From: an uncultured delta proteobacterium
GTDB lineage: Bacteria > Desulfobacterota > RBG-13-43-22
Assembly: GCA_963743305.1 (NCBI GenBank)
Contig: CAVUPH010000038.1
Coordinates: 1-19,536, forward strand
DNA length: 19,536 bases
Reading direction: 5' to 3'
This document shows, piece by piece, positions 2,715 to 17,876 of this stretch. How positions within the stretch are numbered: the stretch's first letter is position 1; the number at the start of each line of letters is the position of its first letter. The position numbers and the translations under genes were made by a program. Below the pieces are notes generated by a model. That model was not told the DNA's origin. It saw only the letters and a program-made list of their open reading frames with translations, and made no database searches.

Positions 2715-4406
2715 CTAAGAAGGCATACTAAAGTCACGGGGACTTCGCAATTCATTTTTTACCGCCATCCCCAGTGTTTCGATGGCATAAGGCTTTTTAA
2801 TATAGGCGCCTGCTCCCAATTCCTGGGCCTTTTTGACGCGGTCAGATTCAGTGAATCCGCTGGCGATGATAGCTTTTTGCCCTGGATGAACATCAATAAT
2901 TTTTCTGTATGTTTCCAGGCCGTCGATTCCGCCTTCCAGAATCATATCCAGAATCAATAAATCGACAGAATGATTTGTCAGATATTGAATGGCTTCTTCC
3001 CCACTTGAAACAGAACTCACTGTGTAATTCAGTTTTTCTAACATGGCTGTGCAGAGTTTCCTTTGCAGTTCTACATCGTCAATAACCAAAATAGATTCCC
3101 CGCTTCCGGAATAACCTTCAAGATCCAGTCTGTGCTCTCCGATGAATGCCGCTTCCCTTGTGGCAGGGAAATAAAGGGTGAAAGTCGTACCTTCTCCTTT
3201 TACGCTTTGAAGATCAACATAACCTTTGTGGTCTTTTACGGTTCCCCAGACAATTGCCAGCCCGAGTCCGGTCCCGCTTCGGCCCATGGCCTTCTTTGAA
3301 TAGAAGGGTTCAAAAACCCTATTTAGATCTTCTTCTGCTATGCCTTCCCCGTTATCCGAAATTCTGAGGGCCACGTATTCGCCTTCTACCAGGACGTCAT
3401 AATTACTTGTGGGTTGATCGATATAGAGATTTGAAGTGGAAATGGTGAGTTGTCCCACGCCCTTCATCGCTTCCATGGCATTGGCAAACAAATTCATAAT
3501 AGCCTTTGAAAGATGGATTTGCGAACCATGGACATTAAAAAGGTCCGGTTGCAGATCTGTTTCAATCCGCGTGTCGGGATAATCGTCGGCAAGTTTCAGG
3601 AACTCGGGAGATTCCAAAATGTCTGCTAAGATATGGTTCAAATTGAGTATTTGAGTAGAAAAAACGCCTCTTCTGGCCAGAGTCAGCAAGTCCTGAACGA
3701 CCGCTGCAGCCCTTTCACCGGATTTCTGTATGGCGAGGATAGGTTCCCGTAAAGGACTGTCTTCAGGAATATCGAGAAGAATAAGTTCGGGATAAGCCAC
3801 GATACCTCCCAAAATATTATTGAGATCATGGGCCACGCTTCCGGCAAGGATGCCAACCGCCTCCATCTTTTCGGCCCTCTTGAGACTGGCTTCCAGTTTT
3901 TGATTTTCTATGCTGGCCTTCTCCCGTTCCATCATTTCTTGTTTAAGCATTTCGTTGCTCTTCAAGAGCTGCTTCGTGCGATCCTCCACCAATTTTTCCA
4001 GCTTCTCCTTATAATGCTGCAATTCCCTTTCGAATCGCTTTCTCTCTTTGAGTTCGTGGTGAAGGCGTTTGGCCAAGTCGCTCATCTTGCCCATTCCTGC
4101 AGCAAATATCAGGGTAATGGTATTTGATATTAACCCCATGGGGAAAAAGTCAACAACGGCCTTCCCTGCCATTTTCGCCAGAAAAGCGAGAAGCAAACTA
4201 TGAAGGATCCAATATAGAATCCCCAGCCGGAATCCTAATAACCATCCGGCAATGAGAGGAAAGATACTGAAAACGAGGAAAGCACCGTCTGCGATCACCG
4301 AGAAAAGCGGCAAGAATCCCAATCCCAAAAGAATCAAAAAGCACAAAATGAGTGCATACGGTTTGAAAAGAGACTTTCTTGCCCACAGGGTTTTTAACCC
4401 GCCCAT
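2715..4406 (-). CDS. Membrane-bound hybrid sensor histidine kinase/response regulator
   Basis: Hydrophobic N-terminus, coiled coil, H-box AHDLNN, N-box NLFANA, G1 DNGEG, F-box FEPFYS, G2 GTGLGL, and C-terminal REC domain (IDD...LILDM...KKP). Confidence 0.95.
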   Translation of the reverse strand: MGGLKTLWARKSLFKPYALILCFLILLGLGFLPLFSVIADGAFLVFSIFPLIAGWLLGFRLGILYWILHSLLLAFLAKMAGKAVVDFFPMGLISNTITLIFAAGMGKMSDLAKRLHHELKERKRFERELQHYKEKLEKLVEDRTKQLLKSNEMLKQEMMEREKASIENQKLEASLKRAEKMEAVGILAGSVAHDLNNILGGIVAYPELILLDIPEDSPLREPILAIQKSGERAAAVVQDLLTLARRGVFSTQILNLNHILADILESPEFLKLADDYPDTRIETDLQPDLFNVHGSQIHLSKAIMNLFANAMEAMKGVGQLTISTSNLYIDQPTSNYDVLVEGEYVALRISDNGEGIAEEDLNRVFEPFYSKKAMGRSGTGLGLAIVWGTVKDHKGYVDLQSVKGEGTTFTLYFPATREAAFIGEHRLDLEGYSGSGESILVIDDVELQRKLCTAMLEKLNYTVSSVSSGEEAIQYLTNHSVDLLILDMILEGGIDGLETYRKIIDVHPGQKAIIASGFTESDRVKKAQELGAGAYIKKPYAIETLGMAVKNELRSPRDFSMPS

Positions 4407-5281: not shown

Positions 5282-7417
5282 TTAACCTGGATAAAAGGTC
5301 CTCTCGGATTCCGCCATCCCCCGGATCAGGTCGGCCGGTATATAGCGGGGTCCGTAACGCTTTTCCAGGTCCAACAGTTTTTCATAGACCGGTTTCAGCC
5401 CCCAAGCGTCGGCGTAGCGCAGGATCCCCCCCCGGTAAGCAGGGAACCCGGTGCCGTTGATCATGGCCAGGTCCATGTCCGCAGGGCGGTCACAGATCGC
5501 CTTCCTCGATCATCAGGGCCGCCTCGTTAATGCCCAGGGCCAGGAGGGTGTCGACAATTTCTTGAGGTTCCATATTCCGAGGAGCAATCCCCTTCTCTCG
5601 CTGATATTCCCGGATCACTTCCGCCACTTTGGGGTTAGGGACAGGCCTGGCACCCGAATAGTCAAAATAGCCGGCCCCTGTTTTCCGCCCATAGCAACCG
5701 GTTTGATAGATCCTTTCCACCAGGGGATGAAGGGTATATTGCTTTCCCAGTCGCCGCGCAAAGGTTCGATTCACATGATAGCCGATATCGATCCCGGTCA
5801 GGTCTTCCAAGGCGGCCGGCCCCAGGGGCATCCCGAAGTCCGTAACGGCCCGCTCGATAGCCTCCAGATCCACGCCGTCGGCCAGCAGGTAGGGCAATCC
5901 CGGCAAACAGGGCAATGAGTTGCCGGGTAACATAAAAACCAGGGCCATCGTTGACCACCAGCATGAATTTTTTAATGCTCTTGGCGAAGGAGACACCGGT
6001 GGCCAGGGTCTGGTCCGAGGTCTTCTCCCCGCAGATAATTTCCAAAAGCGGCATCCGCTCCGCCGGGTTGAAGAAATGGAGACCGATCATTCGTCCTGGA
6101 TCTTTCAGGACGGAGGCCATCTCGGTGATGGGCAGGGCCGAGGTGTTCGTTCCGAAAATCGTTTCCGGTCTGCAGATCTCTTCCAGTTTTTTCCAGATTT
6201 CCTGCTTGACCTCCATATCTTCCAACACGGCCTCGATCACCAGGTCTACATCCTTCAGACCCTCAAGCGAAGTGGTGGTGATGAGTCGGTCTCGGATCAG
6301 TCCCTCAAGATCCTCCTCGGTCATTTTCTTCTGTTTGATCGGATAAGCAAAGCTCCGACGGACTGCCTCCAGCCCTTTTTGAAGGGCCGCTCTCGTCGAT
6401 ATCCCAGAGCACGGTCTCAAAACCGTTTTTAATCAGCAGATGGACAATCCCCGAGCCCATGACTCCGCCACCCAGCATGGCCACCTTCTTGATTTTAGCC
6501 GGTTCGAGGCCCTTGATCCTCGGGTGCCGTCCGGCCGCTCGGGTGTTCAAAAAAACGCCGATCAAATTTTTGGCGATAGCGGATACAGCGCAATCGCTAA
6601 ACAGTCCCACGTCCCGGCGGATGTCGATTTCCAGATCGGCAGTCAGCCCTTGCTCCAAGGCCTCCAGGGCCTTGAAGGGGGCCAAGACCCCCCGGAATTT
6701 TTTGGCGTTCCGATTTTTGAATTCCTCGATGACGGCCTTTTTCTCTTCTACGTCGGGTAGAAGATCCTTTCGATTCCGGGTTATCCGCTGCCCCCGGTCG
6801 AGTTCTCCGGAAATAAACCGACGCGCGGCCTTCAGGGCGGCCTCCTGCAATTCGTCGGGCCCGACCACCTCATCCACCAATCCCAGCGTCCGGGCATCGC
6901 CGGCCCTGATCGGCTGCCCGAAGGCGATCATCTCCAAGGCACGAGAAAGACCGATCAGCCGGGGCAGCCGCTGGATCCCGCCCGCCCCGGGGATTACTCC
7001 GAGTTGGACCTCCGGCAGACCCAGAAGGGCCTCGGGGACGGCCACCCGGTAATGCCCGGCCAGGGCCGCCTCCAACCCGCCGCCCAAACAGTTGCCGTTG
7101 ACAGCCATGACCACCGGCTTGGGTGCGCTCTCGATGGCGGTGAACAAGCCGGCGGCGGTCCAACCCAACTGAAAGGCCTCCTCCCGGGTTTTCAAGGATT
7201 GCAGTTCGTTGATGTCGGCACCGGCAATGAAGTTCTTTCCGGTTCCCGTCAAGATCAGGGCCTTGACCGCCGGGATCGGCCAGGGCTTCTTGAAGGCGTC
7301 CCGCAGGTCCCGGCTCAGTTGAGGGGACATGGGATTGACCGGCGGGTTGTCGATGGTCAGGAGCGGCTATATTCCGTCCTGGAGGGATATTTTGATTGTT
7401 TTAAATTCGGTTTGCAT
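5282..7417 (-). CDS. FadB/FadJ-like multifunctional enoyl-CoA hydratase / 3-hydroxyacyl-CoA dehydrogenase (several frameshifts)
   Basis: Start MQTEFKTIKISLQDG at 7417. Crotonase motifs (NPPVN, FIAGADI, GGGLE, PEVQLG), Rossmann GGGVMG, EAVLE, NTSAL, GLHFFNP, GMPLGP, GRKTGAGYFDY and GTGFP are spread over four ORF pieces. Confidence 0.9.
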
Positions 7418-7510
7418 TGGAATTAGTCCTTTTTTATTTTCATAGTAACCGCCAAAGCCCAGCGTGGCGCCGGCGCATACATGACAGTTAGAATGGGTCA
7501 ACGAATTGGT

Positions 7511-7598
7511 CGTCATTCAGGACGCCGAGCGAAATCCGGAATCCAGGGTAGTTTGAGCCCCAAAGTACTCTGGATCCCGGATCGAGTCCGGGATGACG
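7511..7598. repeat. REP-like palindromic element CGTCATT...CCGGAATCCAG / CTGGATCCCGGATCGAGTCCGGGATGACG
   Basis: Nested inverted repeats are visible. The inner hairpin CCCGGATC(G/A)AGTCCGGG recurs at 18116-18132. Confidence 0.7.
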
Positions 7599-7679
7599 GA
7601 CTAGAGCCTTTCAATGATTTTCGTTCGCAAAGCGGCGATGTATTTTGATTGGCGGAGTTCTTCGCCAATTACAAAAATT

Positions 7680-7710
7680 CTCTTTGCGTCCTTTGCGACT
7701 TTGCGGTGAA
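7680..7710. repeat. Short CTTTGCG x3 repeat ending GCGGTGAA
   Basis: CTCTTTGCGTCCTTTGCGACTTTGCGGTGAA directly downstream of the thiolase stop; resembles intergenic repeats seen beside GxxExxY genes (from recall). Confidence 0.5.
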
Positions 7711-7713
7711 TAC

Positions 7714-8902
7714 TTAAGCCTTTTCGATCAAAATGGCCTGTCCATGGCCGCTACCCCCACACAAGGCGGCCAGCCCCAGCTTCAGGTCCCGCTTTTCCAT
7801 TTCATGGATCAGGCTGACCACCAGCCGGCAGCCGCTGTTGCCAATGGGATGGCCCAGGGCAATGCCGCCGCCGTTGACGTTGACGATCTCCCGGTTCAGG
7901 CCCAGCTCCTTCTCCACTGCCACCGAGGGGGCGGCAAAGGCTTCGTTGATCTCGAACAGCTCGATAGCTTTCAAGGCCACCCCGGTCTGTTGCAATAGCT
8001 TCCGGATGGCCGGGATGGGGCCGATGCCCATGATCCGGGGATCCACTCCCACGGCCACCGAACTCACGATGCGCCATCTCCGTTTCATGGCCAATTGATC
8101 GGCCAGATCCCGAGAAACGACCAGCACCGCGGACGCCCCGTCGTTGAGCCCGGAAGAATTCCCGGCGGTCACCGTCCCGTCTTTTTTGAAGGCCGGAGGT
8201 AACTGGGCTAGCCCTTCCAACGTCGTTTCCGGACGCGGATGTTCATCCGTATCGAAGACGATATCTTTCTTACCCCGCTTGCCGGGGATCACCACCGGCA
8301 CGATTTCTTCTTTAAACCGTCCTTCTTCCAGGGCCTTCTTAGCCCGTTGCTGGCTGGTATAGGCAAATTCATCCTGGTCCTGACGGGAAACCTTGAATTG
8401 CTCGGCCACGTTCTCCGCTGTCATCCCCATGATCAGCTTGGAATATTGGTCGAACAACCCGTCCCAGACGCCGTCTGACAGTTCCTGGTGTTTGAGACGC
8501 AACCCCCACCGGGCGTTCTTAATGGAAAAGGGCACATTGCTCATGCTCTCCCCTCCCCCGGCGATAATGGCCTCCCCTTCTCCCAGGCGGATGCGCATCG
8601 AGGCGATCCGGATGGCCTCCATGGACGAACAGCAGGCCCGGTTAACGTGCACGGCCGAGACGTGTTCGGGAATCCCGGCCCGCAGGGCGGCGCAGCGGGC
8701 CAGGCCGTTTTCGTCGCTCCTGCACCATGACCACGCCCCAATAAATGTCTTCCAGCTTTTCCCGGGGGAAGTCCACCCGCTTACAGACCTCATCCATCAC
8801 CGTCGTGGCCAGTTTCTCGTGCAGCACGTCCCGCAACGACCCGCCGAAGGAGGCGATGGGCGTCCTAACGGCGGAAACAATGATCGGATCTTTTTTATCC
8901 AT
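7714..8902 (-). CDS. Thiolase (acetyl-CoA C-acyltransferase), one frameshift near 8720
   Basis: N-terminus AVRTPIASFGGSL, nucleophile region VNRACCSS, GGESMS, TAGNSSGLNDGA, NEAF, GHPIG and LCGGSG. AAGGAG RBS. Confidence 0.93.
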
Positions 8903-9129: not shown

Positions 9130-10621
9130 TCATAAGGTTGGCGGAAAAGCCGGCAGGTCGGCATAATCGGGATGGCTTTTTCCGTCGTCGATCCCGGCGG
9201 CCCTTTTAGCCGCAGCCTTGTAGCGCCCAAAATCCGCCAACTGCAGAATGGACATCTTCTGGGCCTCCAGCGAGCCTTCGGCGTGGATGGTCAAAACGTC
9301 TTCATAGGAAGAGGTCAGGTCCCGGGCCAGCTTCATCATCCGGAAGCGATCTATGGTCGGGATACCGTCCCGGCCGGCCAGGTATTTTTCCACCATGGCC
9401 CGGGTCTCAGGATTCAGCAGATCTTTAGCGGAGGGCGCCGTGACCATGATCCCGCCGGCGATGTCCTGCAGGTATTTGGTGGCCGTATGCCAGTTGTCGG
9501 CAAACTGATATTTACAGATATTGGCGATCATCGGGTTGGGATAGACCAGGTCCGAACCTTCTTCCTGGATGCAATGTCTCCGCCGCCGCTTTTCCCAGCA
9601 CCTCGATGGATTCGGTGTACATGACCAGCCAGGTCAGTTTTTCCCGCACGTGGGCGGCCTTTTCGATGCCGTTGTACTCGGCCAGCAGGGCGGCCGCGCC
9701 GGTCACCAGCTCCAGTTCCATGGCCTTGTAGGTCTCGGCACTCAAGCGGTGAAAGTTGGCGAACATATACGCCACCTGGCCGGCGAATTCCCATTCCCCC
9801 TTGAGAAAGATGCGCTCGTTGGGAATAAAGACGTCCTCGAAGATGATCATGGCGTCGTTGATATAGACGGACCCGGAAATAGGGTGGTCCATCAGATTGA
9901 AGCCCTCGTGCACTTCCGGCTGGGCGGAGATAAGGGTCAGCCCCGGGGCGTTCACCGGGACCCCGAAGGCCACGGCATAGGCCCGGTCGTCTTCGCGCAT
10001 GGCCCGGCAGGGGGCCACCAGGATCTCGTTGCAGGCCGGGGCCTGGCTGATGTGGGCCTTGGCCCCCCGGACGACGATGCCGTCCTGGCGTTCCTCGACG
10101 ATATGGACGTAAAAATCCGGGTGCTGTTTCTGCTGGGAGGGACGCAGGCTGCGGTCGCCCTTGACGTCGGTTAGACCCATGGCGAAGGCCAGGTCGTTCT
10201 TCTGCAAGTGCCGGCGATAGGCGGCCACGTTGGCGGCATAGTGAGTCCCGTATTTCTTATCGATCCGCTCACCGACCACGGTCACCGCGTTCAGGCCGTC
10301 CTTGGCCACAAACTTGGCGCCGGAAGGTTTGCCGAAGGTGGCCCGGGCCCACAGTTTGACCATTTCTCGCAGCCGGAGCAGGTCTTCCCGGGTCCGCTGG
10401 GGCTGCAGGGCAAAACTGACCCGCTCTCCGTCTCCGTCCAGGTCGGTCAGCAGTTCCTGGTACCGAGGATCATTATTCATGACATAATCCATGGCCACCC
10501 ATTCGTTGCAGATCTTCAAAATAGGATGTTGGGTAACATCGGGTACCCGCTCCCCGTCGCAGTAAACCACCCGGCCGTCTCTGAGGCTGGCCAGATATTC
10601 TTGAGGTGTCTTGATTGCCAT
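9130..10621 (-). CDS. 4-hydroxybutyryl-CoA dehydratase / 4-hydroxyphenylacetate 3-hydroxylase (AbfD/HpaB) family flavoprotein, Cys-less variant; frameshift near 9570
   Basis: MAIKTPQEYLASLRDGRVVY, TDVKGDRSLRP, DGIVVRGAKAHIS, FEDVFIPNERIF, FANFHR, DIAGG, HAEGSLEAQK. AAGGAG RBS before the ATG at 10621. Confidence 0.9.
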
Positions 10622-10730
10622 TGGTATTCTCCTTTTTTCTTGATCAAAAATTAACAATTAAGATAATTGATTATTGATTGTTGGCCATGCTTCGAGACCC
10701 ATCTGACGCGCGATGGCGGCATCCCCGAGG

Positions 10731-10851: not shown

Positions 10852-11336
10852 CTAAAACGTCCGGGAACAGGCGATCGTTTCATGCTCTTTCCCCCGGACG
10901 GAGAGGACGGGCACCGGGCAACGGCGAAAGACCTTTTCCGCCGTGGATCCGAACAGGGTATTGGCAATATTGGTTCGGCCTTTGGTCCCCATGACCACTA
11001 AATCCACTCCCTGATCCTTGACGATCTCCAGCAGTTCCACCCAGGGAACCCCGACCCGAAAAACCTGGACGACCTTTATTGTCTGACAACCGGTCTCTTT
11101 CAACAGTTGATCAGTTCTTGGCGGCTCGGTCCTGCTTTTGATCGGAGATAAATTTTTCCTTTGTTATCCCGACACTTTCCACTTTGCTGATGGCATCCAC
11201 ATCCCGTTGGTTGATAACGTTGACCACCACCAGAGCGGCGTTCAGATGAACCGGCCAAAAAGGCCGCGTAATTAAGGGTAGCCTTGGAATAATCGGAAAA
11301 ATCGACTGCGGCCATTATTTTATTAATCGGTCCCAT
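10852..11336 (-). CDS. Universal stress protein (UspA family), frameshifted
   Basis: MGPINKIMAAVDFSDYS...; C-terminus DLVVMGTKGRTNIANTLFGSTAEKVFRRCPVPVLSVR. GAGGAGG RBS. Confidence 0.88.
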
Positions 11337-11469
11337 CAATACCTCCTCGGTTATTATTAAATTCGGAGCTTCGCCCTCTGGGGGATACACCGGACACCTG
11401 CGAAGCATGAAAATACATGGACTTGCCAGCAAAGACGTCATTGCGAGCGGAGCTGGGACTATCTTCGTA

Positions 11470-12237
11470 CTAAGCTATGCCGTGCCACAGGCTCAACTCC
11501 TCATCCGTGGAAACGGTGCCGGTCACCCCGGAAGCATCCTGGGCGGCCAGGAAGAGAGCGCATTTGACCATCTTGTCCGCGGAAACCCAGCCCTGGCGCT
11601 CTTCCGGTTTGGTCCAGAAGCGCATCCCCTCGGTATCCACCGGTTCTTTGGGCTTCAGGCCGTTGACGGCGATATTGGATTGCCCCACCTCCACGGCCAG
11701 ACCATAGGTGAAACGGTCCAGCCCGGCCTTGGCCACGCCGTAGGCCACCCCGGTGGGGACGGTACCGGCGTCCCGTTCGTCGGCCGCCAGGGAGGAGATG
11801 TTGATGATGCTGCCCCTTTTCTGAGCGATCATGGCGGGCAGTACGGCCCGGGCGCATAAAAAGGCCCCGGTCAAGTTCACCCGCAGGACCGTTTCCCACC
11901 GTTTGAGCGGCGTTTCGATAATCGGGTAAAAGAAGGCCACCCCGGCGTTATTGACCAAAATATCGATGGTCCCGAAGGCCGCTATGGCCGCCTGCACCAT
12001 GGCCTGGACGCTTTCTTCCCGGGTCACGTCGCATTGAACCGGCAGGGCCTGGCCCCCCCCGGCTTCAATCGCGGCAGCGGTTTCCTGGATGCTCCCATCG
12101 AGCCCGCCCTCCCGGGGGACAAAGGAACGGGCCGCCAGGATGACTTGCGCACCCTCCCGGGCCAGCCCCAGGGCAATGGCTTTGCCGATGCCCCGGCTGG
12201 CTCCGGTGACGACGGCGGTTTTGTCTTTGAGAAGCAT
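11470..12237 (-). CDS. Classical SDR family NAD(P)-dependent oxidoreductase
   Basis: TGASRGIG, NNAG, NISS and YGVAK catalytic motif; 255 aa. Confidence 0.93.
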   Translation of the reverse strand: MLLKDKTAVVTGASRGIGKAIALGLAREGAQVILAARSFVPREGGLDGSIQETAAAIEAGGGQALPVQCDVTREESVQAMVQAAIAAFGTIDILVNNAGVAFFYPIIETPLKRWETVLRVNLTGAFLCARAVLPAMIAQKRGSIINISSLAADERDAGTVPTGVAYGVAKAGLDRFTYGLAVEVGQSNIAVNGLKPKEPVDTEGMRFWTKPEERQGWVSADKMVKCALFLAAQDASGVTGTVSTDEELSLWHGIA

Positions 12238-12354: not shown

Positions 12355-13674
12355 CTATCCGGCACCCAACAGCTTCCGCGGCAGCCAGGTAGCCAGCTCC
12401 GGAAACAGGATGCAGATGATCAGTAGGAGGGCCTGGATACCCACAAAGGGGACGACCGACCGGATAATATCCCCCATGGAAATATTCGACGGCACGATGG
12501 CCTTCATGTAGAAAAGATTGAAGCCGAAGGGCGGGGTCAGGTAAGCCATTTCCATGTTGACGATGAAGAGCAACCCGAACCAGACGGGATCGAAGCCCAG
12601 GGCCTTGATCACCGGCACGAAGACCGGCGTACAGATCATGATGATCCCTCCCGGGTCCAGCAACATCCCCAGAATGAAGAGCACCGCCTGCATGCCGATC
12701 AGGATCATATACTTGGAAACCGGCAGGGTGGCGATCACTTCCTGAATGAACTCCACGGCCCCGATGGCCGTGTAGAGGGAGGTGAAGGCCGTGCCCCCGA
12801 TGATGATCCAGACCACCATGCTGCTGAGCCGCAGGGTGGAGTAGCTCGATTCCGTGATCACCTTCCAGGTGAGGTTTCGGGACACGGCGGCGCAGATCAT
12901 AGCCCCCAAAGCGCCCAGGGCCGCCGCCTCGGTCGGAGTGGCTATCCCTTTAAAGATAGACCCCAGGACCAGGGCAATGAGGACCAGGGGCAGGATCACG
13001 GCCCGGAGGGATTCGAATTTTTCCTTCCAGGTAGCCCTTTTATCTTTGGGGAGGGCCGGCCCCAGATCCTTCTGAAAAAAACAGCGGATCAGGATATAGA
13101 AGATAAACATCAACCCCAGCAGGATCCCCGGGATAATGCCGCTGGCGAAGAGGGCGCCGATGGATTCCCCGGAAAAGAGGCCGTAGAGGATGAAGGGGAT
13201 GCTGGGCGGGATCAGGACGCCGAGGGCCCCGCCGGCGCTGATGCAGCCGATGGAGATGTCCTTGTCGTAGCCCCGCTGCAGCATGGAGGGCAGGGCAATG
13301 AGTCCCATGCTCACGGTGGCCGCCCCGCTGACCCCGACCATGGCGGCGAAGATCATACAGATGATCACCGTCCCCACGGCCAGCCCGCCCCGGACCCCGC
13401 CAAACCAGCGGTACATCATTTCGTACAGATCCCGGGCCAGCCCTGACTGTTCGAGAACGACGCCCATGAAGATAAAAAGGGGGATGGCGATGAGGATGAA
13501 ATTCTGCATGACCCCAAAGGAATTGGACGAGATCTGCATCAATCCCTGCGGCCCCCAGAGCAGGTAGGAAAAAATGACCGCCGCGCCGCCCATGACCATT
13601 ACCAGGGACGCGCCGGTGGCCAAAAACAGGAGCAGACCGACAAACAAAAGCGTGGTGATCAATCCGAGGTCCAT
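12355..13674 (-). CDS. dctM: TRAP transporter large permease
   Basis: Highly hydrophobic 439 aa from MDLGL; motifs AIPLFIFMG, GALGVLIPPSI, ATPTEAA, LTPPFG. Confidence 0.95.
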   Translation of the reverse strand: MDLGLITTLLFVGLLLFLATGASLVMVMGGAAVIFSYLLWGPQGLMQISSNSFGVMQNFILIAIPLFIFMGVVLEQSGLARDLYEMMYRWFGGVRGGLAVGTVIICMIFAAMVGVSGAATVSMGLIALPSMLQRGYDKDISIGCISAGGALGVLIPPSIPFILYGLFSGESIGALFASGIIPGILLGLMFIFYILIRCFFQKDLGPALPKDKRATWKEKFESLRAVILPLVLIALVLGSIFKGIATPTEAAALGALGAMICAAVSRNLTWKVITESSYSTLRLSSMVVWIIIGGTAFTSLYTAIGAVEFIQEVIATLPVSKYMILIGMQAVLFILGMLLDPGGIIMICTPVFVPVIKALGFDPVWFGLLFIVNMEMAYLTPPFGFNLFYMKAIVPSNISMGDIIRSVVPFVGIQALLLIICILFPELATWLPRKLLGAG

Positions 13675-13678
13675 GGGA

Positions 13679-14263
13679 CTACCCCTTTCTACCCGTCGAA
13701 CGAAGGGTTTGGCAATCGCGTATGAATTTGGCAATGGCCTGCAAGAGGAACAATAAGGCCCCCAGGGGGAGCATGATCCGGAAAGGATAGAGCGGGGGGC
13801 CCCATTGCGAGGAATCGTGCTCCAGGGTGGCCAGCGACCGCCAGGCCCCTTCTCCCCCTTTCCAGAGCAGGATGCCCAGAAAGGGGATGGTCAGAATAAA
13901 GAAAGTGACGATATCCAGGATGGCCCTGCCCCGCGGGGAAAAACGGCTGTAAAAGATATCCATGTTGACGTGTTTATTTTCCTTGGCCGTGTAGGCCCCG
14001 CCCAGGATGATGAAGGTGCCGAATAGCATGGCCGACATTTCCTGTGCCCAGACGGTCGGCGCGCCAAAAAAATAACGCTTGACCACGTCGTAACTGACCA
14101 TCAGGGCCAGTACCACGATCAATAGACCGGCCATTTTCCCCACCGACTCGCTGAGCCAATCGATGCCGGCCAGCAGGCCGCCCCCGCCCTTTGACGGGCG
14201 GGGAGCGGATTGTTCCTCCCGGGTGGCAGAGGGACCGGGATCTTGATTTTCTTCCCTGTTCAT
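13679..14263 (-). CDS. dctQ: TRAP transporter small permease
   Basis: About four hydrophobic segments; APTVWAQE and HVNMDIFY motifs; lies between dctP and dctM. Confidence 0.92.
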   Translation of the reverse strand: MNREENQDPGPSATREEQSAPRPSKGGGGLLAGIDWLSESVGKMAGLLIVVLALMVSYDVVKRYFFGAPTVWAQEMSAMLFGTFIILGGAYTAKENKHVNMDIFYSRFSPRGRAILDIVTFFILTIPFLGILLWKGGEGAWRSLATLEHDSSQWGPPLYPFRIMLPLGALLFLLQAIAKFIRDCQTLRSTGRKG

Positions 14264-14277
14264 GCCTCGCCTCCTGA

Positions 14278-15300
14278 TCAGTGGCCTTTTTCTTTCCGCA
14301 ATTCCTTCAACAGGTTGACCGCCTTGGCGGACAGGGCGTCCTTCTTGGACATCTCCGCCTCCAGCTCTTCGCCGACCTTATCCATTTTTTGCTGCTCGGC
14401 CGCGGGCAGGGTGACGAACTGGACCTTCCATTTCTTGGCCATGTCCTCCTTGGCGGCCTTGGTCAGTGCCCGGGAACTGGTGAAGCCTGCCAGACCGCCC
14501 TTCTGCAGGGAAGATTCGAGCGCGGCCCGCTGTTCGGGTTTCAGTTTTTTCCAGAGGTCCAGGTTGATCATGATGTTGTTCCAGGAGCCGATGATCGGTT
14601 CCGGTTCCATGTAGTTTTTAAGCACTTCCTGGAATTTCATTTCATACATGGGGCCCGCATCCCCCCAATGGGCGCCATCGACCACGCCGGTGGCCAGGGC
14701 GGTATACAATTCCCCGGCGGCGACTACCGTGGTGGAGGCACCCAGCTTGCCGAGGAAATCGGCCATGATCCCCATGGCCCGCAGCTTCATTCCTTTCAGG
14801 TCCTCCACCTTGTGGATCGGCTTCTTGGTCATCAGGCCGACCGAAAAGGGTTCATAAGGGATGATATAGACGTTGTGCTTGGCATAGCCTTCGCGCAGGA
14901 GGTTGAGGTAGCCCTTCTTGAACATGAATTCCCGGACTTCATCAAAGTTAATAAAGGAATAGGGCACTCCCTGGCCGATTTCGCTGACCGGGATGGCCTT
15001 ATACCAGAAGCCTTCCGGATACATGGCCAGATCGAGCGTGCCCTTGCCGACGGCGTCCATCATCTCCTTCACCGGGACGATGGCTCCCGCCGGGAAAATG
15101 GTGAGCTCCAGGGTCCCCTTGGAGGCCGCGGCCAGGTCCTGGACCAAGGTGGCCGTGACCCGCTTGGTCTGGGTCGGGATCAGGTGGGTCTGCATCCGCA
15201 GTTTGAGTTTGGGTTCATCCGCCGCACCGGCCAGCGTGCCGATGACAAACACCATGACCATTCCCAATACCAGTGCCCAAAAAACGTTTCTGTGCTTCAT
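14278..15300 (-). CDS. dctP: TRAP transporter substrate-binding protein
   Basis: Signal peptide; IFPAGAIVP, DLKGMKLRAMG (conserved carboxylate-binding Arg), ELYTALATGVVDG. GGAGG RBS. Confidence 0.95.
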   Translation of the reverse strand: MKHRNVFWALVLGMVMVFVIGTLAGAADEPKLKLRMQTHLIPTQTKRVTATLVQDLAAASKGTLELTIFPAGAIVPVKEMMDAVGKGTLDLAMYPEGFWYKAIPVSEIGQGVPYSFINFDEVREFMFKKGYLNLLREGYAKHNVYIIPYEPFSVGLMTKKPIHKVEDLKGMKLRAMGIMADFLGKLGASTTVVAAGELYTALATGVVDGAHWGDAGPMYEMKFQEVLKNYMEPEPIIGSWNNIMINLDLWKKLKPEQRAALESSLQKGGLAGFTSSRALTKAAKEDMAKKWKVQFVTLPAAEQQKMDKVGEELEAEMSKKDALSAKAVNLLKELRKEKGH

Positions 15301-15351
15301 ACTTTTTCCTCCTTTGGTAATTAATAAATTAATAATGGGTAATTAAAAATT

Positions 15352-15494
15352 GATGGTTTCGCAAAAAGTTGAAAAAGCCGTCATTGCGAGCGAAGCGAAG
15401 CAATCCCCACCTTGGCAAGTAGCTGAATATTGGAGATTGCTTCGTCGCTTCGCTCCTCGCAATGACAGCCTCGGGGACTTTTTGCGAAACCATC
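15352..15494. mobile_element. 143-bp MITE with perfect 18-bp TIR GATGGTTTCGCAAAAAGT and internal GTCATTGCGAG...CTCGCAATGAC palindrome, copy A
   Basis: TIRs at 15352-15369 and 15477-15494; flanking direct repeat AAAATT at 15346-15351 and 15495-15500. Confidence 0.85.
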
Positions 15495-15512
15495 AAAATT
15501 GATGATTGATTA

Positions 15513-17182
15513 TTAATTACGCTTTCCTCCGGCATTTTCCGTTTCCTCCTTGACCAGAATTCGTTTCAAAAGCTTCCCGGCCGCGCTTTTCGGCAGTTCT
15601 TCTCGAAACTCGACCAGGTGCGGGCGCTTATAGGCCGCCATATTTTCCTTGCACCAGTCCAGGATTTCCTTCTCCGAAATCTTCCCCGCATATTCCGGCT
15701 TCAGGATAATGAAGGCCTTGGGCGTCTCACCGCGATAGGGATCGGTGACCCCGATAACCGCTGTTTCTTTAACGGCCGGATGCCGGTAGAGCAGGGCCTC
15801 CACCTCGGCCGGAAAGACGCTGTACCCGGAGCACTTGATCAGCTCCCGTTTGCGGCCCAGGAACTTGACGTACCCTTCCTCGTCCATGAGCCCCAGGTCC
15901 CCGGTATGGAGCCGGCCGTCGCGGAGGACCTCGGCCGTCTCCTTCGGATTGTTCCAATAGCCGAGCATGACCACCGGCCCTTTGATGGTGATTTCACCCT
16001 CCTCGTTCGGCCCCAGTTCGCGCGTCCCGGTCTCCAGGTCGCGGATCTCGATCTCATTGAGCTGGGGAATGCCCAGAAAACCCGGTTTGTAGCGGTGGAG
16101 GGGAGTGACAGCTCCGCCGTGGGAGATGGTTTCCGAAAGGCCGTAGCCTTCGCCGATGGCTGCCCGGGGGGCCAGTTCTTTTAATTGATTCTGGAGTTCT
16201 ACCGAGATAGGGGTCCCGCCGGTCAACAGGACCCGGAAGGAAGAAAAATCGTATTGCCGGACATTGGGCAAACTGAGCAGGGCGATCATCATGGTGGTGG
16301 CCCCCACCCAGTAGGTACAGCGGTAATGGGTGATGGCCTGAGCCACCACCTCCGGAATAAACCGGGCGAGGATCACGATCCGCCCGCCGGAAACCAACGG
16401 GGTGCAGAGGAGTTGCTGTTGCCCCATGACATGGAAGAAAGGGGTCACCCCGAGGTGCACGTCATCCTCCCGGTGACGAAACCAGAACATAGCCCCTAAA
16501 TTAGCGCAGCTCAGGGTGTGGTGGCTGATCATGGCCCCTTTGGGCAGTCCCGTGGTCCCCCCGGTATACTGAAGGACGGCCAGTTCCTTCTCCAGGTCCG
16601 CTACCCGGCAGATGGGTCGATCGGAGGATCGTTCGAGGAGGTCCTGGAGGTCGATCGTGTCCGGAAAGAGGTGTTTGGGTTCCGTTGCTTCCTTGGGCAG
16701 AGGGAGGATGGGTTCGGGCGGGAGGTACTCACTAAGGGAAGTCAATATGACCTGTTTAAGCGGAGTCTCGGCTACGGACCTTTTCCAGCTCGGGATAAAG
16801 CGTATCGAGTCCGATCAGGGTTTCCGCCTGGGCGTCGTTCAATTCGTAATCCAGTTCGGCCTGTTTGAACATGGGGTTGACCGGCACCACGACCGCCCCG
16901 GCCCTTTGGATGCCGAAATAGGCAATGACGAACTGGGGACAGTTTTCCATGTGGATGGCCACCCGGTCGCCCGGTCTTGATTCCCAGATCCACCAGTCCC
17001 CAGGCGCACCGGTCGATCAGACTGTTCAACTCCTGGTAGGTGAAGTCCCGACCATGGAAACTGAGGGCGATGTGGCCGGGGGTCAGGAATGCCCAATCCC
17101 GAAGGTACTCGGAAGTCGGCTTTTCGACGGTAATCGTTTTTGGAACCCAGAGGGGCCAGACTTTATGCCAACGACGTTCCAT
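15513..17182 (-). CDS. Long-chain-fatty-acid--CoA ligase family AMP-forming acyl-CoA synthetase (frameshifts near 16975 and 16760)
   Basis: YTGGTTGLPKG, GYGLSE, HTGDLG, GRKRELIK and LPKSAAGK motifs. The N-terminus is split across ORFs 16772..17182 and 16756..16962. Confidence 0.92.
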
Positions 17183-17270: not shown

Positions 17271-17876
17271 CTATTTCTTTTGCCGGTCGGCCACTCCCTC
17301 CAAAATAAACGTACGGACGGTACGGACGAAAGCAGGCATATCCATGGAATCCCCATGCACCAGCCACTGGACCAGCATCCCGGTATGACAGGCAATAATG
17401 GCATGGGCATAGAGGGCCGAATCCACTTTCTTTTTCACGGAACCGTCCTTTTTCCCTTCATTCAGCATTTCCTCGATGATGCGGCTGAATTTTTCGTAAA
17501 CGTTTTTAGCTATTTTTTCCGCTTCGGAGTTGGTGCCCACGATCTCATTCAGGAGGGTATTGAAGGCCAACGACAGGTCCCGGTGATCTCGGGCGAATTC
17601 CGTGGAATACTTATGAAAAATACGATACTTGGCCGTGAAATCCCCCCGAACGGACCGGACCGTTTCCGCCAATTTCTCCAACAGTTCCGTGTCAAATTTC
17701 CGAAAGATGGTGATCAGAATATCATCTTTACTCTTGAAGTACCAATAAAGGGTCCCACGACCGATGCCCGCCGATTCCGTAATCTCCTTGACCGAGGTCC
17801 CCCGGTACCCCTTGGCCAGGAAAAGCCGGGTACTGGCTTCGAGGATCCTTTCCTTGACATCACTTTTCTCGGCCAT
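17271..17876 (-). CDS. TetR/AcrR family transcriptional regulator
   Basis: N-terminal HTH ILEASTRLFLAKGYRGTSVKEITESAGIGRGTLYWYFKSKDD; 201 aa. Confidence 0.95.
   Translation of the reverse strand: MAEKSDVKERILEASTRLFLAKGYRGTSVKEITESAGIGRGTLYWYFKSKDDILITIFRKFDTELLEKLAETVRSVRGDFTAKYRIFHKYSTEFARDHRDLSLAFNTLLNEIVGTNSEAEKIAKNVYEKFSRIIEEMLNEGKKDGSVKKKVDSALYAHAIIACHTGMLVQWLVHGDSMDMPAFVRTVRTFILEGVADRQKK

Follow-up and report, generated by a model that had tools for sequence, protein, structure and literature searches.

The sequence analysed here (the window) is a stretch of 19,536 nucleotides (nt) of contig CAVUPH010000038.1 from an uncultured delta proteobacterium (GenBank assembly GCA_963743305.1). 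On its minus strand, at 9130..10621, lies a gene for a flavoprotein of the family that comprises 4-hydroxybutyryl-CoA dehydratase (AbfD) and 4-hydroxyphenylacetate 3-hydroxylase (HpaB), in which the cysteines of the AbfD iron-sulfur cluster are absent and a Glu stands in line with the catalytic base of acyl-CoA dehydrogenases (ACADs). The gene was delimited from its open reading frames (ORFs), its Pfam domains, and an intact orthologue of 496 amino acids (aa) with 95% identity (L005:1057-2547). Its start codon ATG (10621-10619), its stop codon TGA (9132-9130), and an AAGGAG ribosome-binding site at 10629..10634, 7 nt 5' of the ATG on the same strand, were read from the sequence.

With translation table 11, the gene is divided into two overlapping minus-strand ORFs, 9512..10657 (381 aa) and 9130..9531 (133 aa). 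The first contains the full-length Pfam domain HpaB_N (1.1e-79) and positions 1-74 out of 202 of HpaB, and the second contains HpaB positions 75-202; the two thus make up a single gene with a +1 shift. Up to about residue 348 the protein is read in one frame and from there on in the +1 frame, and the product has 496 aa once a single extra base is removed. This base breaks the frame at 9577..9578 (minus strand), where the window has GAG-A-CAT. In the DNA alignment, the 94-95% identical orthologues L006 and L007 have GAG-CAT or GAA-CAT at this place, and a 95%-alike contig from the public run X2 is also one base shorter at 9578. Intact orthologues of 496 aa are present in three related genomes. 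Both frames are free of internal stops and, apart from the break, are 94-95% identical to the intact orthologues. At least four further genes of the same operon, coding for the thiolase, the fused enoyl-CoA hydratase/3-hydroxyacyl-CoA dehydrogenase, the universal stress protein (Usp), and the acyl-CoA ligase, are split between frames. As the extra base is absent from three relatives and frames are broken in at least four neighbouring genes as well, it is probably an assembly error. On the minus strand of the window between 5490 and 17182, at least five genes of one operon are thus frame-split, which points to an assembly with frequent single-base indel errors. There is a small chance that the extra base is truly present in the cells and that the gene is a pseudogene of the source genome. 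The broken reading frame would agree with this, as would a likewise broken paralogue on contig C25, but the other split genes of the operon, the high identity to intact orthologues, and the lack of stops in either frame all speak against it. Genes are also frame-split in another assembly of the same genus (L016), and short-contig assemblies of 94-95% relatives (L017, L018) yield single unbroken matches. Programmed frameshifting was ruled out, as the three relatives read straight through without the extra base.

The intact 94% orthologue L007:1027-2547 was used as a stand-in for the residue comparison and was compared with solved structures in phmmer. AbfD (1u8v) was recognized as the best solved relative by sequence (1.6e-72), followed by the 4-hydroxybutyryl-CoA dehydratase of Nitrosopumilus (6vjr, 1.6e-63) and by HpaB (2yyg, 6.2e-53). 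Passages of a preprint on the archaeal enzyme name C99, C103, C299, and H292 as the cluster ligands and T190, E257, Y296, and E455 as important for the dehydratase activity of AbfD (bioRxiv 10.1101/2020.02.05.935528). Set against this list, three ligands and two of the four further residues are missing here. AbfD 'cfqrc VGMD' is aligned opposite 'sgakf VAKD', so that S100-G-A-K-F104 (codons at 10310..10324, minus strand) faces C99-F-Q-R-C103, with S100 (10324-10322) at the place of C99 and F104 (10312-10310) at the place of C103. AbfD 'HRQSYGGCK' is opposite 'HRLSAETYK'. In this segment, His291 (codon 9749..9751, minus strand) faces the cluster ligand His292 and is retained though the cysteines are absent, and Y296 is replaced by A295. 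Tyr298-Lys299 (9725..9730, minus strand) faces Cys299-Lys300, with C299 replaced by Y298 (9730-9728) and K300 retained as K299. Finally, AbfD 'ESMHGAGSPQAQR' is opposite 'LTIHAEGSLEAQK', with E455 changed to L443 and A460 to E448; the codon of Glu448, GAA at 9277..9279 on the minus strand, belongs to the motif H-A-E-G-S and is placed opposite both AbfD Ala460 and the Glu of the ACAD motif YEGT. The changes of T190 to S192 and of E257 to D256 are conservative. The ligand set Cys99/Cys103/Cys299/His292 is thus S/F/Y/H, which is not the set of AbfD, and the catalytic set T190/E257/Y296/E455 is S/D/A/L, with two conservative changes and two losses; the two lost residues, Y296 and E455, are the radical-generating pair of AbfD and are A and L here. 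A first-pass annotation made from the letters of the window alone had already set KPSGAKFVAKD against CFQRC-VGMD and HRLSAETYK against HRQSYGGCK, had stated that all three cluster cysteines are gone and only the His is kept, and had set LTIHAEGSLEAQK against ESMHGAGSPQAQR, with the Glu codon at 9277-9279. The alignment with 1u8v agrees with it in each of these points.

The protein has both HpaB_N and HpaB domains in Pfam and an AbfD-like fold, with 1u8v as the top match by sequence and in Foldseek. Opposite R100, Y104, and H142 of Thermus HpaB, which are its phenol-binding residues, it has V105, G109, and M148, so the phenol residues are not kept. In NCBIfam, the N-terminal piece of 369 aa reached 181.7 bits with TIGR02309 (cut-off 480.2) and 103.8 bits with TIGR02310 (cut-off 885.2); slightly higher values would be expected for the complete protein.

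Exhaustive search of 50%-identity representatives revealed 2990 related proteins at E <=0.001 and 317 at E <=1e-30. Alignment A2 consists of 102 rows, namely 94 representatives of near-full length taken from the best 150, together with six close homologues and two orthologues. Its tree was computed in FastTree from all columns, including those of the motifs, and has midpoint rooting and local support only. A clade of 55 rows (support 100) contains all 45 rows in which both the C103 and the C299 column hold Cys. Another set of 22 rows has HpaB-like patterns among its members. The third part consists of two adjacent groups of 10 and 15 rows (support 92 each, mutual order unresolved), and the protein of the window is classified there. 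When rows with the Glu present and no Cys at the two columns were selected, 27 qualified, and 24 of these are in the two groups. The twenty-fifth row of the groups, P0125, has Cys at the C103 column but Lys at position 298; the other three qualifying rows (P0155, P0224, and P0260) are placed in the 22-row set.

Glu448 is present in 25/25 rows of the two groups and in 0/45 Cys-bearing rows. The same distinction was found for Tyr298 (23/25 vs 0/45, with Cys there in 45/45), Tyr335 (24/25 vs 1/45), Asp15 (25/25 vs 1/45), and Arg17 (25/25 vs 8/45), while His291 is in 25/25 group rows and 35/45 Cys-bearing rows. The flavin-region motif TDxKGDR is retained in the group, D152 and K154 in 23/25 rows and G155 and R157 in 24/25. 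Given these group-wide counts in the alignment, the motif differences from AbfD are not due to chance, and H..Y[KR] together with H[AG]EGS can be given as the signature of the group. An alternative conserved set of cysteines was not found in the 25 rows: the best Cys columns have 17/25 and 10/25 and are the only two that reach 40%. With no Cys column above 17/25, a replacement cluster site is unlikely. As placed by the tree, the protein is part of a diverse Cys-less group outside the Fe-S clade and beside it, and the idea of an AbfD that lost its cysteines is therefore not supported by the tree. The designation "Cys-less AbfD-family" of the first-pass annotation stands as regards the missing cysteines, while a loss of cysteines from an AbfD ancestor is not shown.

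The existence of Cys-less AbfD homologues was already known, as that annotation had stated for Sulfolobales. In passages of a publication on archaea (PMC4681859), type-2 AbfD homologues are described as having His292 but no cysteines and as uncharacterised. The protein of the window has the same pattern, with His292 kept and the cluster cysteines absent. P0141, with H..YR and HAEGS, belongs to the same tree group, and its cluster includes a Vulcanisaeta protein named 4-hydroxybutyryl-CoA dehydratase. From this placement and from the published type-2 residue pattern, the bacterial protein would belong with the archaeal type 2. In the related genome G014, 13 family members were found, seven of Glu type and six of Cys type. 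His291 is present in 7/7 Glu-type copies and H[AGT]EGS always, while positions 298-299 vary (YK, KM, HK, AI). In this genome (loci L106-L116), the Glu-type copies have as neighbours short-chain dehydrogenases/reductases (SDRs), enoyl-CoA hydratases (ECH), 3-hydroxyacyl-CoA dehydrogenases (HCDH), ligases, a carboxylesterase, and once a flavin-reductase-like ORF.

For comparison with ACADs, the 33 ACAD-domain matches of the same genome were reduced to 26 ORFs of 360-440 aa and then to 13 typical sequences, eight with xEG[TS] and five with GGT or AGT variants. A 22-row profile of the Glu group was aligned with these 13 ACADs in hhalign with a probability of 91.9% in global and 92.4% in local mode. 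In both modes, 'IHAEGSLEAQKM' was placed on 'RIYEGTSEIQRM' and Glu448 on the Glu of YEGT, which is the catalytic base Glu376 of medium-chain acyl-CoA dehydrogenase (MCAD). A nine-row set from the Cys-bearing clade, including canonical AbfD-type rows, took the same register (96.4%) with Ala460 on the YEGT Glu, and the register is therefore independent of the Glu itself. Sequence identity between the Glu group and the ACADs in the profile alignment is 14-16%. The AlphaFold2 (AF2) model of the 95% orthologue has a mean pLDDT of 95.7 and a pTM of 0.91, and Glu448 is situated in a loop between helices 439-446 and 451-461. In Foldseek, AbfD 1u8v was first (E 8.5e-37, TM 0.82), HpaBs came next (about 1e-29), and then short-chain, butyryl-, and glutaryl-CoA dehydrogenases (about 1e-10). 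The profile alignment and the inter-helix loop of the model suggest that Glu448 is equivalent to the ACAD base, as had been supposed in the first-pass annotation. No match to Pfam Acyl-CoA_dh_N, Acyl-CoA_dh_M, or Acyl-CoA_dh_1 was found in the protein; by domain it is not an ACAD, and the similarity is a remote one.

The gene is the eighth in a minus-strand row in the order TetR, acyl-CoA ligase, DctP, DctQ, DctM, SDR, Usp, flavoprotein, thiolase, and fused hydratase/dehydrogenase. At the head of the row is a TetR-family regulator (17271..17876; TetR_N 1.9e-17), followed by an AMP-forming acyl-CoA ligase at 15513..17182, which is in at least two frames with the AMP-binding domain on 16772-17182 and 15513-16745. 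A tripartite ATP-independent periplasmic (TRAP) transporter, recognized in Pfam, occupies 12355..15300, with DctP at 14278-15300, DctQ at 13679-14263, and DctM at 12355-13734. The SDR at 11470..12237 (adh_short 1.4e-51) is the conserved upstream partner of the flavoprotein; its nearest solved chains are 3e03, 2et6, titled '(3R)-hydroxyacyl-CoA dehydrogenase', and 3kvo, HSDL2. The Usp gene at 10852..11441 is in two frames, with the Usp domain on 10852-11103, and is intact in L007 with 168 aa. Downstream of the flavoprotein gene, the thiolase gene at 7714..8902 is also in two frames (Thiolase_N 2-57 on 8642-8902, 59-260 and Thiolase_C on 7714-8793), and the FadJ/FadB-like fused enoyl-CoA hydratase/3-hydroxyacyl-CoA dehydrogenase at 5490..7330 is in three (ECH_1, 3HCDH_N, 3HCDH), with a FadJ-like NCBIfam match below its cut-off. 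All these genes are on the minus strand. Neither an ACAD gene nor an electron transfer flavoprotein (ETF) gene was found in the row by Pfam, the window as a whole has no ETF gene, and no flavin reductase gene was found among the 21 ORFs scanned, a search confined to the window. The nearest solved chains of the ligase are FadD-1 of Archaeoglobus and 4-coumarate-CoA ligases (about 1e-73), which would fit a fatty or phenylpropanoid acid as substrate but are not decisive. The TRAP binding protein has a lactate binder of Thermus as its nearest solved relative, at only 8.4e-23, and a substrate call from it was dropped because this match is too weak. Downstream of the operon, at 2715-4406 on the minus strand, there is a hybrid histidine kinase with a receiver domain (HisKA, HATPase_c, Response_reg), and a comparable kinase is upstream of the Desulfosarcina variabilis orthologue (L056, 5283-7568).

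The genome contains two copies of the whole operon. The second copy, on contig C25, is again without an ACAD gene, and its paralogue of the flavoprotein has the same three motifs. This copy (locus L117, about 52,900-64,200) is very similar to that of the window in its outer genes (DctP 98%, ligase 96%, SDR 95%, ECH 97%, HCDH 93%) and more diverged in the central ones (AbfD-like 65-78%, thiolase 80%, Usp 69%); it looks like a mosaic with an exchanged central cassette or like a co-binned strain, the contamination being 5.7%. Of eight thiolase loci in the genome, a control no larger than that, five have an ACAD gene within 9 kb, two have the gene of the window or its paralogue, none has both, and one has neither. 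Away from the operon, the genome has 13 ETF-domain matches.

When one genome per species was scanned for orthologues, 62 loci were found, 58 of them with at least 65% identity to the N-terminal piece; the neighbour counts over these 58 loci come from flanks of varying length, with no matched control across other genomes. According to the record titles, the hosts of the orthologues (72-95% identity) are Deltaproteobacteria/Thermodesulfobacteriota (Desulfatiglandales, Desulfomonile, Desulfosarcina variabilis, Syntrophorhabdales, and Syntrophales), Actinomycetota, Anaerolineales, and a metagenome-assembled genome of Spirochaetia. Thiolase, HCDH, or ECH genes are in the flanks of 40/58 loci. ACAD genes are near 10/58 (8/40 among loci with thiolase, HCDH, or ECH) and ETF genes near 2/58 (2/40). 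An SDR-like gene was found at 43/58 loci, and an SDR with at least 45% identity, on the same strand and within 1.7 kb, at 13/58; the ligase of the operon is at 14/58 and TRAP DctM at 10/58. The neighbour classes were confirmed by Pfam on 63 neighbours in five loci. The CoA-ester context of the group, mostly free of ACADs, is a recurrent one. At the Actinomycetes locus L019, a FadH-like Oxidored_FMN/Pyr_redox_2 enzyme is upstream (6059-8161), an ADP-forming acyl-CoA synthetase replaces the AMP-forming ligase, and a Liv-type ABC transporter replaces the TRAP transporter. At the Anaerolineales locus L053, a FadH-like enzyme (14608-16695) is about 4 kb downstream, a Liv-type ABC transporter again replaces TRAP, and no ADP-forming ligase was found among the ORFs scanned.

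By descent, the protein belongs to the HpaB/AbfD superfamily, in its uncharacterised Cys-less (type-2) branch, and in function it would be most like an ACAD, or like the isomerase side of AbfD. It lacks the features by which AbfD proper and HpaB proper are defined. With AbfD (1U8V) it shares the best match by sequence and fold, the length, the TDxKGDR region, His292, Lys300, the conservatively changed T190S and E257D, and a place beside genes of CoA-ester enzymes; it differs in the absence of Cys99, Cys103, Cys299, Tyr296, and Glu455, in having Glu instead of Ala460, and in its position outside the Cys-bearing clade. The archaeal type-2 homologues, as passages of PMC4681859 describe them, also have His292 without the cluster cysteines; the link to them through the P0141 cluster and its Vulcanisaeta protein was made by motif and tree, and the identity to the orthologue of the protein is about 37%. 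ACADs of the MCAD or short-chain (SCAD) type belong to the fold class of the protein, with Foldseek E values of about 1e-10 for SCAD and butyryl-CoA dehydrogenase; they have the YEGT Glu at the position of Glu448 and usually occupy this place in a beta-oxidation-type operon. Unlike them, the protein has no Pfam ACAD domain, is about 110 residues longer, and has no ETF partner gene nearby. The HpaB oxygenase components (Thermus HpaB, PDB 2YYG) have the same Pfam domains and fold, but the phenol-residue positions are not kept, the NCBIfam scores are under the cut-offs, and the context is one of CoA esters.

Tentatively, and with somewhat less than an even chance of being right, the product can be regarded as an FAD-binding, Fe-S-free enzyme that deprotonates an acyl-CoA at C2 via Glu448 and, as a dehydrogenase, yields 2-enoyl-CoA. 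Directly observed are the fold family, the absence of cluster ligands, the conservation of Glu448 and His291, the match of this Glu to the ACAD base in the alignment, and the operon; we infer that FAD is bound, and also the reaction with its electron acceptor and its substrate. FAD would be bound as in AbfD, because the TDxKGDR region is kept and S192 stands for T190. Glu448, at the position of the ACAD base, would take the C2 proton of the thioester, the C3 hydride would be transferred to N5 of FAD, and the 2-enoyl-CoA would be passed to the neighbouring hydratase/dehydrogenase and thiolase. In this way, the enzyme would substitute for the ACAD missing from an operon in which all other steps of beta-oxidation are encoded. 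His291, on the cluster side of AbfD, probably serves to bind or protonate a polar substituent close to C4 of the substrate. This substrate is presumably an organic acid that enters through the TRAP transporter and is then activated by the ligase. The dehydrogenase is favoured because the radical pair of AbfD is lost and the operons are ACAD-free. If it is one, it would represent a second way, non-homologous by Pfam, to carry out the initial step of beta-oxidation, and one that occurs mostly in lineages known to be anaerobic. Several points weigh against it. No biochemically characterised member of the Cys-less group was found in the literature searched. An ETF gene is absent from the operon, and only 2/58 orthologues have one nearby; ACAD-domain matches already number 33 in the genome. 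The invariant His291 would be unneeded for a plain alpha,beta-dehydrogenation, and isomerisation or elimination at C4 would fit it better. The operon also fits a 4-hydroxybutyrate branch (ligase, dehydratase, fused hydratase/dehydrogenase, thiolase), which requires no dehydrogenase. The neighbour counts were made without a matched cross-genome control, the control in the own genome has 8 loci, and the equivalence of Glu448 with the ACAD base rests on no three-dimensional superposition.

The main rival is a redox-neutral enzyme, rather unlikely but conceivable, in which Glu448 would take the C2 proton, the flavin would be transiently engaged or uninvolved, and His291 would act at C4. It could isomerise 3-enoyl- to 2-enoyl-CoA in the manner of vinylacetyl-CoA isomerase, or it could catalyse a cluster-free C4 elimination from 4-hydroxyacyl-CoA or another gamma-substituted acyl-CoA, with 2-enoyl-CoA as the product for the neighbouring enzymes. 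His291 is invariant without a cluster, in 25/25 rows and in 7/7 G014 paralogues, which suggests that it takes part in catalysis on the C4 side. The enzymes encoded in the operon are exactly those of the 4-hydroxybutyrate branch, and no electron acceptor would be required, in agreement with the rarity of ETF near the orthologues (2/58). The SDR, the most regular neighbour (SDR-like at 43/58 loci and beside 4/7 of the G014 Glu-type paralogues), could introduce a hydroxy or oxo group into the substrate or take one away. ACADs, too, isomerise vinylacetyl-CoA through the same catalytic Glu. Moreover, PMC4681859 describes very high transcription of a type-2 homologue in an archaeon whose genome encodes almost all of the 3-hydroxypropionate/4-hydroxybutyrate (HP/HB) cycle. 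On the other hand, the radical machinery of AbfD serves the removal of an unactivated C3-H from 4-hydroxyacyl-CoA, and Tyr296, Glu455, and the cluster are absent here. For Metallosphaera, a table of PMC7078158 lists the Cys-bearing Msed_1321 as up-regulated and assayed, but Msed_1220 as not regulated and with no activity determined. A narrower proposal, decidedly unlikely, is that the whole H[AG]EGS group, including the archaeal type 2, is a cluster-free and hence oxygen-insensitive 4-hydroxyacyl-CoA dehydratase, in which Glu448 would act at C2, the flavin would be reduced transiently, and His291 would serve as the acid for the C4 hydroxyl. If so, dehydrogenase-like chemistry would replace the radical Fe-S mechanism of AbfD, and the view of a textbook radical reaction would change. 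The operon would then be a 4-hydroxy-acid pathway, type-2 genes could run 4-hydroxybutyrate cycles, and the group would be a living intermediate between ACADs and the radical AbfD.

Two further assignments follow known family members. A two-component monooxygenase of HpaB type, which would hydroxylate phenolics with reduced flavin and O2, is very improbable. The Pfam domain names do derive from HpaB, NCBI names relatives '4-hydroxyphenylacetate 3-hydroxylase N-terminal domain-containing protein' and one related cluster 'aromatic ring hydroxylase', and the G014 paralogue L110 adjoins the flavin-reductase-like ORF. However, both NCBIfam HpaB models are far under their cut-offs, V, G, and M are opposite R100, Y104, and H142, the protein is nearer to AbfD than to HpaB by sequence and fold, all its neighbours are CoA-ester enzymes, and no flavin reductase is among the window ORFs scanned. 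Many record titles also name lineages with anaerobic cultured members; those of Desulfatiglandales, Desulfosarcina, Desulfomonile, and Syntrophorhabdales are anaerobes. Even less credible is a true AbfD-type 4-hydroxybutyryl-CoA dehydratase with its [4Fe-4S] cluster bound through other residues. AbfD is the best solved relative and His292 is kept, but three of the four ligands are replaced, Tyr296 and Glu455 likewise, and no alternative Cys column exceeds 17/25 in the group. The first-pass annotation had rejected both a radical dehydratase and an O2-dependent HpaB, and a cluster held by other cysteines would have spoken against it; here the lost ligands with the lost Tyr296 and Glu455, the V, G, and M at the Thermus positions, and the lack of a conserved substitute Cys set are all in its favour. 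Its observation as a whole is confirmed, and its interpretation is supported, with every checkable part having held.

In the literature searched, nothing was found on the invariant Glu at the position of the dehydrogenase base, although studies of the AbfD structure and its variants may discuss Ala460. Nothing was found there on the placement of the group beside rather than inside the Fe-S clade or on the recurrent ACAD-free beta-oxidation context across bacterial phyla. Type-2 AbfD homologues have been uncharacterised since they were noted in Crenarchaeota, and the Glu-His pair together with the repeated operon leads to a short list of assays. Public genomes and metagenomes contain these Cys-less proteins in abundance, with more than 120 clusters at 90% identity in the group of close orthologues alone. 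The Joint Genome Institute (JGI) routinely names them 4-hydroxybutyryl-CoA dehydratase, and the database names of these proteins do not fit the residues present. The gene abfD features in papers on carbon cycling and dark CO2 fixation. It is used as a marker gene in surveys of these processes. As Cys-less members are named as the dehydratase, such surveys may be inflated by enzymes unable to hold the cluster.

Fused or longer forms of the protein were not found among proteins of 869-2480 residues, which is weak evidence. In the Cys-bearing part of the family, P0218 (825 aa) is an ETF alpha (ETF and ETF_alpha, residues 7-286) fused to an AbfD-family protein with CxxxC and C299 present, HGGGS, and Tyr at the His292 position. 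This fusion is a hint at electron exchange between ETF and some Fe-S members of the family; it was set aside as evidence on the Glu group, since it is of the Cys-bearing type and says nothing direct about that group. Among public sequencing runs, none contained more than 0.20 of the sampled sequence words of the window, and runs with a small share are labelled as soil, sediment, wetland, and other metagenomes. Four runs were examined and contained only 88-99%-alike pieces, i.e., relatives of the window. In the wetland metatranscriptome run X20, contigs from the RNA library are 97-98% alike over 9203-9484, a hint that close relatives of the gene are transcribed in that wetland.

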